From: Candidatus Nitrotoga sp. 1052
Lineage (GTDB): Bacteria > Pseudomonadota > Gammaproteobacteria > Burkholderiales > Gallionellaceae
Length of the DNA stretch: 64,000 bases
Assembly (NCBI RefSeq): GCF_927312905.1
Contig: NZ_CAKMHQ010000045.1
Span: forward strand, 58,229 to 122,228
Direction: 5' to 3'
The notes below the pieces were generated by a model, which saw only the letters and a list, made by a program, of their open reading frames with translations, searched no databases and had not been told where the DNA came from. Positions 8,955 through 63,003 of this stretch are shown one piece after another (the stretch's first letter is position 1; every line of letters begins with the position of its first letter). Both the position numbers and the translations under genes were made by a program.

Positions 8955-8976
8955 CATACTTCTTTTGCAATATGAA

Positions 8977-9004
8977 TAAAAAACCCGCTTAAGCGGGTTT
9001 TTTA
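8977..9004. terminator. Bidirectional rho-independent terminator between the desaturase gene and rpmG
   Basis: aaaaacccgcttaagcgggtttttt: GC stem aacccgc/gcgggtt with a 4-nt loop, flanked by an A-run and a T-run. Confidence 0.7.
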
Positions 9005-9027
9005 TGCGTTTGAACAAAGTGAATAGC

Positions 9028-15437: not shown

Positions 15438-16028
15438 ATGCTTTACACCCTGTCAGGCCGCACACCGGAATTAAATGGGCAACAGCATTACATCGCGCCC
15501 AATGCCAGCGTCATCGGCTCAGTCATTCTCGAAAATAATGTCAGCATCTGGTTCAACGTGGTAATTCGTGGCGACAATGAACCTATCCGCATCGGCGAAA
15601 ACAGCAACGTTCAGGATGGCGTAGTAATGCACACCGACCCCGGCGCGCCGCTCACCTTAGGCAAAAACGTCACTGTCGGCCACATGGCAATGCTGCACGG
15701 CTGCACCATCGGCGACGGCAGCTTGATCGGCATCCACAGCACCATTCTTAATCATGCCGTAATCGGCCGCAACTGCCTGATAGGCGCGAACACACTGATT
15801 ACCGAAGGCAAAGTAATCCCGGACAATTCACTGGTGGTAGGTTCGCCCGGAAAAGTAATGCGCAGCCTGAAAGAAGAAGAAATCGCAGCCCTGCATGCCA
15901 ATGCTGCGCGCTACGTGGTAAATATTGGTCGCTATCGGGAGTCGTTGGTGCACGTAGGGGCAAAAGATTTTTTGCCCCTACAATCTTTTGCCCCTACAAA
16001 AGATAAACATGGCGACATTCAATTCTGA
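15438..16028 (+). CDS. Gamma-class carbonic anhydrase family or hexapeptide-repeat protein, with its C-terminus rewritten by a REP insertion
   Basis: Left-handed beta-helix hexapeptide repeats with His ligands (VVMHTD...HMAMLHGC). The last ~25 codons ([26 protein letters not shown]) read through a REP palindrome. Confidence 0.7.
15954..15997. repeat. REP palindrome gtaggggcaaaagattttttgcccctac (28-bp perfect palindrome) plus an adjacent half copy
   Basis: Exact 28-mer at 15954-15981, followed by ttttgcccctac. Identical 28-mers recur at 16288-16315 and 16559-16586. Confidence 0.85.
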
Positions 16029-16536
16029 CACGCCCCACCGCAAATCTCTCCGCCTGCGTGGATATGATTATTCGCAGGCTGGTTTGTATTTCATTACCAT
16101 CTGCACGCATAAGCGGCTGCCGTTATTCGGAGAAATCGTTGATGGAAAAATGATGCAAAATGAGACTGGAATGATGGCAGAAAAATGTTGGTGTGCCATA
16201 CCCGATCATTTTTCGTGGGTCATGTTGGATGCGTTTATTGTCATGCCAAACCACGTGCATGGCTTTATCACCGTAGGGGCAAATGACGTAGGGGCAAAAG
16301 ATTTTTTGCCCCTACAATCAAAACCAAAACATGGCACATCCCGAATGATTGGATCAATTGTTCGGGGATTCAAAATTGGCGTTACCAAATGGTTTCGTTC
16401 CAATACAAATGTTCATGTCGTTTGGCAACGCAATTATTACGAACACATCATCCGCAATGACGAGGCGTACTTAAAAATTGCTGAATACATCCAGACCAAT
16501 CCCCAACGATGGGAAGAGGATATCTACCATATCTAA
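16009..16536 (+). CDS. REP-associated tyrosine transposase (RAYT, IS200/IS605 TnpA-like Y1 HUH enzyme)
   Basis: HUH motif HVHGFI and a catalytic Tyr region ([15 protein letters not shown]). About 175 aa. Flanked on both sides by REP palindromes. Start taken at ATG 16009 (MATFNSDT). Confidence 0.7.
16273..16315. repeat. REP unit (partial plus full palindrome) lying inside the RAYT coding sequence, in frame
   Basis: gtaggggcaaa tgac gtaggggcaaaagattttttgcccctac. It encodes about 15 extra residues ([15 protein letters not shown]) between the HUH motif and the next conserved block. Confidence 0.8.
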
Positions 16537-16558
16537 TCTCACCGAATCCGCCATCAAT

Positions 16559-16586
16559 GTAGGGGCAAAAGATTTTTTGCCCCTAC
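16559..16586. repeat. REP palindrome, 3' flank of the RAYT gene
   Basis: Exact copy of the 28-bp palindrome, 23 bp after the RAYT stop. Confidence 0.85.
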
Positions 16587-16660
16587 AGGTGTAAGATAAA
16601 TTTCTGCATTACCAATCAATGGTTAAAAAATCAATAAATTCATATGGAGTTATCAGCCAC

Positions 16661-17920
16661 ATGACAAAGAAAAACGCATTTTATGCCCAATCCGGTGGCG
16701 TAACCGCAGTAATCAACGCATCGGCTTGCGGCGTGATCGAAACGGCGCGTGCACACAAGGACAAAATCGGCAAAGTCTATGCAGGCCGTAATGGCATCAT
16801 CGGCGCGCTGACTGAAGACCTGATCGATACGACCAAGGATTCCGCCAAGTCCATTGCGGCATTGCGCTACACGCCGTCCGGTGCATTCGGATCCTGCCGC
16901 TTCAAGCTGAAAGGTATTGAAGAAAACAGATTGCAGTATGAGCGGCTGATCGAAGTCTTCAAGGCACACAACATTGGTTATTTCTTTTATAACGGCGGCG
17001 GTGATTCCGCTGATACCTGCCTGAAAGTTTCACAGTTGGCTGAAAAAATGGGTTACCCCATTCAGGCAATCCATGTACCCAAAACAGTCGACAATGATTT
17101 GCCCATCACTGACTGTTGCCCTGGTTTCGGCTCGGTCGCAAAATATGTCGCCGTATCGGTACGCGAGGCCAGTTTTGACGTTGCTTCAATGGCCAAGACC
17201 TCAACCAAGGTATTCGTGGTGGAAGTGATGGGCAGACATGCTGGCTGGATAGCCGCCGCCGGTGGCTTGGCCTCGGATGTGAATTGCGAGTTGCCGATTA
17301 TTATTCTGTTTCCCGAAATCCCCTTCAACAAAGAAAAATTTCTGGCCAAAGTCGATGCCATGGTAAAGCAGCATGGCTATTGCTCAGTAGTGGTGTCAGA
17401 AGGCGTGCAAGGTGCAGACGGCAAATTTCTCTCCGACCAGGGGCTGCGAGATGCTTTCGGTCATGCCCAGCTGGGTGGCGTAGCGCCGGTGGTAGCCAAC
17501 ATGGTGAAAGATGGGCTGGGTTACAAATTCCATTGGGCGGTGGCTGATTACCTGCAACGTGCCGCGCGCCATATCGCTTCCAGGACCGACGTCGAACAGG
17601 CCTATGCGCTCGGCAAGGCTGCGGTGCAGCTGGCATTGAAGGGCGAAAACGCCGTCATGCCTACCGTTGTTCGTCTCGCCGACAAGCCCTACAAGTGGAA
17701 AATTGGCGTTGCCCAACTCAAAAACGTGGCTAATGTAGAAAAAAAAATGCCGCGCAACTTTATTACCAAGGATGGGTTCGGCATCACCGACAAGTGCCGT
17801 GCATACCTCGCTCCGCTGATCAAGGGCGAAGATTACCCACCTTACAAAGACGGCTTGCCCCAGTACGTTCGGCTCAAGAATGTGGCGATACCCAAGAAAC
17901 TAGACGATTTCAAGATATAG
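16661..17920 (+). CDS. pfp: Pyrophosphate-dependent 6-phosphofructokinase (PPi-PFK)
   Basis: PFK fold motifs GGDGS-like (GGGDSADT), PKTVDNDL, MGRHAGW. About 420 aa, the PPi-type length. Directly upstream of the H+-PPase gene. Confidence 0.7.
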   Translation: MTKKNAFYAQSGGVTAVINASACGVIETARAHKDKIGKVYAGRNGIIGALTEDLIDTTKDSAKSIAALRYTPSGAFGSCRFKLKGIEENRLQYERLIEVFKAHNIGYFFYNGGGDSADTCLKVSQLAEKMGYPIQAIHVPKTVDNDLPITDCCPGFGSVAKYVAVSVREASFDVASMAKTSTKVFVVEVMGRHAGWIAAAGGLASDVNCELPIIILFPEIPFNKEKFLAKVDAMVKQHGYCSVVVSEGVQGADGKFLSDQGLRDAFGHAQLGGVAPVVANMVKDGLGYKFHWAVADYLQRAARHIASRTDVEQAYALGKAAVQLALKGENAVMPTVVRLADKPYKWKIGVAQLKNVANVEKKMPRNFITKDGFGITDKCRAYLAPLIKGEDYPPYKDGLPQYVRLKNVAIPKKLDDFKI

Positions 17921-62968: not shown

Positions 62969-63003
62969 AAAAAGCCCGGCATTTTCATGCCGGGCTTTTT
63001 TTA
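62969..63003. terminator. Bidirectional rho-independent terminator between the M17 peptidase gene and cspA
   Basis: aaaaagcccggcattttcatgccgggcttttttt: a 9-bp GC-rich stem with an A-tract on one side and a T-tract on the other. Confidence 0.75.

Follow-up and report, generated by a model that had tools for sequence, protein, structure and literature searches.

A RAYT gene of Candidatus Nitrotoga with REP hairpins on both flanks and a third in frame: a probable member of TnpA_REP subclass 2.4

The locus and its repeats

In a stretch of 64,000 nucleotides from Candidatus Nitrotoga sp. 1052 (contig NZ_CAKMHQ010000045.1, positions 58,229 to 122,228 of the forward strand; hereafter the window, with positions counted from its first letter), a gene for a REP-associated tyrosine transposase (RAYT, also called TnpA_REP) lies between two copies of a short hairpin of the repetitive extragenic palindrome (REP) type and carries a third copy in frame within its own coding sequence. 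The gene order, namely HbpS-like, gamma-carbonic-anhydrase-like (gamma-CA), RAYT and phosphofructokinase (PFK), is shared by the window and four related genomes (L032, L009, L039 and L075). In our opinion the locus is a REPtron of TnpA_REP subclass 2.4, which is RAYT group 4: a single-copy, vertically inherited gene for an HUH/Y1 endonuclease of single-stranded DNA (ssDNA), with cognate double-foot REPs and an in-frame copy that is kept homogenised. We put the probability of this reading at about 0.8.

The repeat is a 28-mer, GTAGGGGCAAAAGATTTTTTGCCCCTAC, of which the window holds exactly three copies, all on the forward strand (Table 1), against a chance expectation of 0 (100 shuffles). The original prediction, made from the letters alone, had listed these three copies within 640 bp, correctly, and had called the repeat a perfect palindrome, which it is not. 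The 28-mer differs from its own reverse complement at 2 positions, both in the loop, and consists of a 12-bp stem (GTAGGGGCAAAA/TTTTGCCCCTAC) with an asymmetric 4-nt loop GATT. Its ends are of the 'double foot' type, 5'-GTAG ... CTAC-3'. Folded as ssDNA, the three sites give -14 to -19 kcal/mol (z = -5 to -7.7).

The full copies all point the same way, with the loop GATT on the forward strand, and are spaced by 334 and 271 nt. Copy 1 ends 27 nt before the ATG of RAYT, an interval in which we looked for a promoter and found none, and copy 3 begins 22 nt past the RAYT stop codon (16534-16536). Copy 2 is read GTA GGG GCA ... CCC CTA C and follows H82-V-H84 at a distance of 4 codons plus a 5-codon half copy. 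Hence there is indeed, as had been claimed, a REP in frame between the HuH motif and the next conserved block, with a partial copy (confirmed in the sequence at 16273-16283) in front of it. The other half copy, immediately behind copy 1 and missing from the list of the original prediction, could pair over 16 bp with the left arm and loop of that copy, and it is absent from L009 and L039. There is also a 17-nt similarity after copies 1 and 2 (CAAAAGATAAACATGGC / CAAAACCAAAACATGGC), which we judged to be due to chance, given the many two-copy families of equal size in the same 1.6 kb.

Table 1. Features of the RAYT locus in the window
Feature	Position	Strand	Evidence or remark
gamma-CA-like hexapeptide-repeat open reading frame (ORF), 196 aa	15438..16028	+	Pfam Hexapep 6.8e-18; NCBIfam gamma-CA profile over residues 1-168
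605-bp unit (one REP + RAYT) missing in the solo-REP allele of L070	15954..16558	+	
REP copy 1, upstream RAYT flank	15954..15981	+	12-bp stem, GATT loop, double foot GTAG...CTAC
Extra half copy	15982..15997	+	AATCTTTTGCCCCTAC; flipped loop AATC + right arm TTTTGCCCCTAC
RAYT / TnpA_REP subclass 2.4 gene (probable assignment), 175 aa	16009..16536	+	Motifs, fold, homology
In-gene half copy	16273..16287	+	GTAGGGGCAAATGAC; left arm of the B-type variant, encodes VGAND
REP copy 2, in frame inside RAYT	16288..16315	+	Encodes residues 94-103 in the beta3-alphaC loop
REP copy 3, downstream RAYT flank	16559..16586	+	Oriented like copies 1 and 2

A search with the 11-mer GTAGGGGCAAA at up to one mismatch returned no further family-like copy in the remaining ~63 kb of the window, and a scan of the window for perfect stems of at least 9 bp returned no other hairpin of the family. 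The high copy number of classical REPs in bacterial interspersed mosaic elements (BIMEs), above 100 dispersed copies per genome, is thus not approached, with none outside the RAYT locus in 64 kb; nor is the alternating, regular spacing of BIMEs or REPINs seen, the three copies standing in direct orientation. For Nitrotoga, therefore, the original idea of a dispersed REP family with BIME-like spacing does not hold. Copy number in this genus was gauged from the window and from the metagenome-assembled genome (MAG) of a sister Nitrotoga, since Nitrotoga sp. 1052 is not among the GTDB representatives scanned; the sister MAG has four exact copies in all, only two of these being further ones, and at least one of them lies in a RAYT relic.

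Outside Nitrotoga the exact 28-mer is widespread. It occurs in 84 stretches (L001-L084) of GTDB representative genomes from at least eight phyla (Pseudomonadota, Desulfobacterota, Bacteroidota, Spirochaetota, Planctomycetota, Fibrobacterota, Latescibacterota and Cyanobacteriota), with the most copies, ~16, in Desulfarculales UBA702 and 6 in Parapedobacter. Some 65 of the 84 stretches have no RAYT within 8 kb. We considered that these dispersed 28-mers might mostly be relics of RAYT genes and rejected the idea, because RAYT relics were found in only 3 of the ~65 (L026, L031 and L035), the others being solitary copies. Carriage by phages as the route of spread across phyla was dropped as well, with only 2 distant relatives found among 2.9 million viral contigs. 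Where a RAYT does adjoin the 28-mer core, it is 54-94% identical to that of the window, and more distant RAYTs have other cores; hence the REP type tracks the phylogeny of the enzyme.

The RAYT protein

The 175-residue product matches a protein of Candidatus Nitrotoga sp. 1052 at 100% identity. That it is a HUH-Y1 enzyme of the RAYT kind, flanked by REPs, was predicted, and here motifs, fold and flanks agree. The HuH motif is N81-H82-V83-H84 (16249-16260), the W motif is W139-Q140 (16423-16428), and the catalytic Y160 (16486-16488) lies in YIQTNP, which has T at the fourth position where the consensus YIxNNP has N. In 40 homologues of 56-89% identity, which we call the close set, N81, H82, H84, W139, Y160 and N164 are invariant and I161 and P165 at least 90% conserved. 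Residues W139/Q140/E145/H146/R149/Y160 align with W94/Q95/E100/H101/R104/Y115 of the E. coli TnpA_REP structure 4ER8, in which the first five form the cluster that recognises GTAG and Y115 is catalytic, as described in PMC6006769; YIQTNP itself aligns with Y115-I-Y-I-N-P.

An AlphaFold2 (AF2) model (predicted local distance difference test, pLDDT, 72.5; predicted template modelling score, pTM, 0.70) was compared with known structures by Foldseek. The best match in PDB is 4ER8, at a root-mean-square deviation of 2.5 Å, and the top 30 matches are without exception TnpA_REP, ISDra2, IS608 or IS200 transposases, as expected of the Y1 HUH fold. We base membership of the superfamily on fold and motifs rather than on the Pfam Y1_Tnp hidden Markov model; the loop insertion splits the domain. 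Compared with 4ER8, the segment from HuH to alphaC has ~21 extra residues; between a strand (82-89) and a helix (114-132), pLDDT drops below 50 for residues 94-110. The residues encoded by the REP are thus modelled as a disordered surface loop between beta3 and alphaC. This agrees with the published homology model of the subclass, which places the insertion away from the DNA-binding and catalytic sites (PMC6006769). Only 10 residues follow YIQTNP, the model has its final helix at 165-173, and there is no C-terminal tail domain.

Quentin, Siguier, Chandler and Fichant (2018, BMC Genomics 19:475, PMC6006769) defined subclass 2.4, equivalent to RAYT group 4 (Bertels, Gallie & Rainey 2017, PMC5581495), by NH[IFV]H, WQ, YIxNNP, a variable beta3:alphaC insertion and the lack of a tail domain. 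Its REPs have the 'double foot' GTAG...CTAC, and in-frame REPs between HuH and Y are described as a 'remarkable and unique feature' that predominates in this subclass (PMC6006769). The locus in the window shows the HuH (fitting NH[IFV]H), WQ and Y motifs, the beta3-alphaC insertion, GT[AG]G-footed double-foot REPs within 1 kb, the in-frame REP and no tail. Pairwise ratios of nonsynonymous to synonymous substitution rates (dN/dS) among the four intact syntenic RAYT genes are 0.22-0.28. Judged from its sequence, with the catalytic and GTAG-binding residues present and purifying selection at dN/dS of ~0.25, the enzyme looks intact.

The in-gene hairpin in relatives

Proteins of the close set range from 170 to 223 aa. 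Most of this variation falls in the loop region; the rest is due to N- and C-terminal extensions that read through the flanking REPs. In every one of the 40 the HuH strand is followed by VGAxxxxP(L), and the DNA behind this motif, GTA GGG GCx ... xxG CCC CTA C, is the hairpin.

In order to look further we took a distant set of 80 metagenomic loci with 38-65% amino-acid identity. A perfect stem of at least 8 bp follows HuH in 73 of them (~90%), with a median distance of 273 nt to the start of the match; of the other seven, six have imperfect, degenerate or dimer-like hairpins, and L115 alone has none. For an unselected comparison, 150 nt on either side of HuH and shuffled sequence were examined: the longest perfect stem is at least 8 bp in 67 of 75 loci after HuH, in 0 of 75 before it and in 1.7% of shuffles. 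(An earlier count of base pairs on hand-picked 28-mers was dropped as circular, those hairpins having been chosen for their perfect stems.) The inner stems comprise 59 distinct cores, all self-complementary, and the peptide that they encode varies freely. Of 68 feet GT[AG]GGG, 58 fall in codon frame 0. The choice of codons is skewed, with GTA at 55% inside the hairpin versus 16% outside, CTA at 58% versus 7% and GGG at 66% versus 31%. Self-complementarity of so many cores, free change of the peptide and the preference for codons compatible with the hairpin show that a nucleic-acid structure, DNA or RNA, is conserved here and not a peptide motif. The in-gene REP, fixed in position directly after the HuH strand, is thus ancestral to the clade.

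These comparisons bear on the original prediction that a REP had inserted itself into the coding sequence of its own RAYT. The in-gene residues do consist of REP DNA; the event, however, was neither recent nor local, given a hairpin at this position in ~90% of the distant relatives. The proposed comparison with orthologs was to decide whether the extra residues derive from a REP or are native to this RAYT subgroup, and the answer is both: they are REP-derived and native to the whole subgroup, so that the objection raised in advance applies by half.

The in-gene hairpin also evolves in concert with the flanks of the same gene. Both in-gene and flanking hairpins were detected at 34 loci, and at 15 of these the in-gene core equals a flanking core, either identically or as reverse complement; between loci such agreement is found in 2.1%, and a value as high as that observed came up in 0 of 10000 permutations. 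At L108, L105, L123, L157 and L162 all copies share a core that is unique to their own locus.

Two loci deserve separate mention. In the isolate genome of Thiothrix eikelboomii ATCC 49788 (L071:5234-6163) the RAYT ORF stays open over 309 aa and has nine tandem 51-nt REP-derived repeats, GNVGANNHLPPQYNGGD, right after HuH, an extreme in-gene REP expansion. On a Desulfarculales-like metagenome contig carrying P0094 (L167:2128-2415) five REPs of mixed variants, spaced by ~50-90 nt, stand downstream of RAYT; the RAYT there has in-gene copies of its own that lack the right foot, and its annotated protein is N-terminally truncated relative to the open frame.

Local history

In the genomes with both flanks intact (window, L032, L009 and L075) the flanks are the same A-type 28-mer; L039 has an inverted upstream copy and a degenerate downstream one. 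The in-gene copy is more variable. It is of type A in the window (AAAAGATTTTTT), type B in L032 (AAATGATTATTT) and type B' in L039 (AAATAATCATTT); L075 has the same B' with one foot mismatch (GGGGA; AAATAATCATTT), and L009 has A' with one foot mismatch (CTGC; AAAAAATCTTTT). Two changes set the variants apart, a swap of the closing pair (A-T or T-A) and a flip of the loop (GATT or AATC), and neither ever breaks the stem. In L032, the closest relative (94% aa identity), the protein has 175 aa, as in the window, and the hairpin differs by exactly two complementary bases. Given the equal length and the complementary difference, the identity between copy 2 and the flanks is due to homogenisation, either by conversion or by a compensatory double change, and not to insertion. 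With L039 as outgroup in the PFK tree the T-A closing pair looks ancestral, and the flank-like A-T pair would have been gained independently in the window and in L009, which is suggestive at n = 2. Two of these relatives have damaged RAYT genes: in L075 (1275-1783) there is a 1-nt deletion, either a frameshift or an assembly error, and in L009 (7277-7279) ATA stands where the ATG start is expected.

Another related genome, the Nitrosomonadales MAG Loclat_bin-08429 (L070:1-330), has gamma-CA, a single 28-mer REP and PFK without RAYT. Its junctions match the outer edges of window copies 1 and 3, and in the PFK tree it groups with L009 inside the RAYT-bearing clade. The simplest reading is that L070 lost the 605-bp unit by recombination between direct REP copies. 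In Nitrotoga and betaproteobacterial MAGs (L035:5293-5446, L026:5960-6041 and L031:3777-3902) RAYT fragments have their break at the in-gene REP or directly behind it, which suggests that the internal hairpin is a rearrangement breakpoint.

Interpretation

How such a unit would work and persist can be proposed by analogy. As for TnpA_REP of E. coli (4ER8), the enzyme would bind the folded hairpin on ssDNA, read its GTAG foot via W139/Q140/E145/H146/R149, and cut and rejoin with Y160. The in-gene copy would be tolerated because the loop is permissive, and it would stay perfect by repeated overwriting from neighbouring and dispersed copies, be it short-tract conversion, hairpin flip or RAYT-mediated exchange. 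In the window genome such overwriting would have made the in-gene copy identical to both flanks. Direct REP copies would, in addition, destabilise the unit, with recombination either deleting RAYT and leaving one REP or truncating the gene at the in-gene REP.

Several points weigh against this reading. The mechanism of homogenisation is a proposal from analogy, and activity is a prediction for any enzyme of subclass 2.4. In Nitrotoga hardly any REP of the family lies outside the RAYT locus, and current mobilisation is not evident. Two point substitutions would be enough to convert the sister's B-type hairpin into the A-type of the window, and at 19 of the 34 loci the in-gene core is not identical to any detected flanking core. 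Profile scores are low: PF01797 Y1_Tnp gives 18.3 bits (E = 0.0025), below its gathering cut-off of 23, and the NCBIfam equivalog NF047646 REP_Tyr_transpos gives 67.7 bits (E = 9.7e-19), short of its cut-off of 80, with a match that spans profile positions 6-133 of 146. Scores of this size would fit a diverged subclass in which an insertion interrupts the core, and that for NF047646 indicates a related subclass and not that equivalog. Finally, P69S (16213-16215), I86F (16264-16266) and T113M (16345-16347) are found only in the window RAYT, at sites at least 90% conserved in the close set, and may reflect relaxed constraint in this lineage.

The rival that survives best takes the in-gene REP for a required cis element. 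It could be a site for self-sensing or self-limiting, by binding or cutting of the template strand or by an mRNA hairpin that throttles translation, or else a 'master copy' protected by selection. We consider this unlikely. In its favour, the hairpin is nearly universal and fixed in position across a deeply diverged clade, and its stems stay perfect despite saturated synonymous sites and evolve together with the flanks. In the window and in L009 the closing pair came independently to agree with the flanking stem, and the type of REP core tracks the RAYT phylogeny. However, the orientation of the loop is free among close relatives (GATT or AATC), the number of copies in the loop runs from 1 to 9 with widely variable length, and some in-gene feet have decayed beside perfect flanks (GGGGA in L075, CTGC in L009). 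An apparently intact relative, L115, does without any hairpin, the region was modelled by Quentin et al. as peripheral to the DNA-binding and catalytic sites (PMC6006769), and homogenisation alone can keep stems perfect.

A more specific form of the functional view is doubtful too, namely that the in-gene REP serves as a master copy or self-recognition site within sequence that the element cannot lose, with RAYT itself catalysing the homogenising exchange. If it were true, the enzyme and its cognate hairpin would be inherited together and co-evolve across horizontal transfers. This would account for the fixity of position, for stems that stay perfect at saturating divergence and for concerted evolution within each locus, and it would give a handle on the function of domesticated RAYTs. 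Between function in cis and passive homogenisation in a permissive loop, we favour the latter.

One may also suppose that RAYT is no longer active in Nitrotoga and that the locus is a decaying relic with three leftover REPs. There are no dispersed copies in 64 kb, and the sister MAG has only four exact ones, at least one of these in a RAYT relic. Together with the three substitutions at near-invariant positions and the relatives with loss (L070), frameshift (L075) or a lost ATG (L009), this gives the idea some ground. Still, we regard it as rather improbable, since the ORF is unbroken and lacks none of the catalytic and GTAG-binding residues, dN/dS is ~0.25 and the three hairpins are perfect.

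It is very improbable that VGAxxxxPL is simply a conserved protein motif whose DNA is palindromic by chance, with the flanking hairpins derived from the gene. It has in its favour that in the close set conservation reaches at least 90% at V94, G95 and A96, and that P101 never varies. Yet in wider relatives the peptide is altogether different (VGARHAVPL, VGVQNFEPL, VETQDFASL-type), and their DNA stays self-complementary in each of the 59 cores. Moreover, codon choice is fixed on hairpin-compatible codons in a region predicted to be disordered, and dozens of non-coding sites remote from any RAYT carry this same 28-mer. Hardly credible, lastly, is a recent, lineage-specific self-insertion of a RAYT-mobilised REP in Nitrotoga sp. 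1052, for which the 28/28 identity of the in-gene copy to both flanks in the window genome only (the L032 variant differs) might speak, because the hairpin sits at the same codons in all five syntenic genomes as well as in ~90% of distant relatives, gene length is unchanged relative to L032 with a difference of just two complementary bases, and an insertion of 28 nt would break the frame.

Relation to known systems

The phenomenon itself is little new, since in-frame REPs in their own tnpA_REP gene were described in 2018 as what sets subclass 2.4 apart (in the literature that we searched, no later paper extends that description). The likeness to the subclass includes low-copy flanking repeats, patchy spread over many phyla and largely vertical, short-range inheritance. 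The locus differs from the subclass in nothing of kind. Nitrotoga is a betaproteobacterial nitrite oxidiser, whereas the subclass is described as abundant in Cyanobacteria and Bacteroidetes; the protein has 175 aa against a median of 194, and YIQTNP instead of YIxNNP. What the locus adds is an unusually tidy Nitrotoga member: its three copies are identical, a relative has the solo-REP deletion allele, and the REP supplies the stop codon of a neighbouring gene. In-gene REPs are treated qualitatively in PMC6006769. Added here are positional invariance, covariation, concerted evolution and REP-REP deletion alleles; of some value to specialists is that the in-gene hairpin proves fixed in position, is kept as a nucleic-acid structure and tracks the flanks of its own locus. 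Loci of subclass 2.4 are natural material for testing how RAYTs act on REPs.

With TnpA_REP of E. coli (YafM, 4ER8; subclass 2.2, RAYT group 2) the window gene shares the HUH-Y1 fold, a GTAG foot 5' of the hairpin, the W/Q/E/H/R residues, the tyrosine in YIxxNP and the arrangement of a single gene flanked by cognate REPs. The E. coli enzyme, however, has no insertion after HuH, and E. coli REPs are bulged, single-footed and present in hundreds of copies, organised in BIMEs, whereas the Nitrotoga REP is short, perfect, double-footed and of very low copy number, with one copy coding. The TnpA proteins of IS200/IS605 elements (IS608, ISDra2), which account for Foldseek matches 2-30, have the Y1 HUH fold and recognition of ssDNA hairpins in common with it. 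These elements are autonomous insertion sequences: their left and right subterminal hairpins are distinct, and a genome contains many identical copies of them. The window gene, in contrast, is single-copy and syntenic among relatives and shows no obvious sign of moving by itself.

Intragenic REPs and Rickettsia palindromic elements (Di Nocera et al. 2013, PMC3733652, and work cited there) are also in-frame repeats within genes or at their ends, adding 10-30 residues to tolerant loops or termini, and this likeness covers both the RAYT loop and the tail of gamma-CA described below. There, however, the host genes are unrelated to the transposase of the repeat and the sites vary among orthologues, whereas here the repeat lies in the gene of its own cognate transposase, at a site that does not change across the clade.

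Neighbouring genes and minor observations

The original prediction also held that a REP had rewritten a neighbouring gene, and this needs to be divided. The C-terminus of gamma-CA is indeed REP-derived: residues 173-196 (15954-16025) are encoded by copy 1, which begins at codon 173, by the half copy and by spacer. Copy 1 is also the sole terminator-like hairpin adjoining the gene. The cause, on the other hand, is a difference of 2 nt in the spacer and not the insertion of a REP. We compared five syntenic orthologues, as had been suggested: L070, L039 and L009 stop earlier, and in the window and L032 the ORF reads on through the REP. In L070 gamma-CA ends ...RYRDSLVSE*, the stop being the TAG of the REP's own GTAG foot, so that the REP overlaps the last codon of the gene; L039 ends ...SLVSENG*, with its stop from a partial REP foot, and L009 ends ...RYRDS* at an earlier TAG. 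The spacer reads GTG CAC GTAGGGG in the window and L032 versus GTG AGTGA GTAGGGG in the others. Being 2 nt shorter, it puts the TAG out of frame, the REP is read GTA GGG GCA, and the ORF becomes 24 codons longer and runs to 16028, overlapping the start of RAYT by 20 nt. The chimeric tail is a by-product of a small change in the spacer beside a REP that already abutted the gene.

Downstream of RAYT, the first 14 codons of the PFK ORF as listed (16619-16663) are not conserved, and L070 has an in-frame stop there; the start is likely the ATG at 16661, with GGAG at 16646-16649. Elsewhere in the window, two long perfect hairpins with A/T runs (8976-9005 and 62969-63000) resemble bidirectional intrinsic terminators and are unrelated to the REP family.

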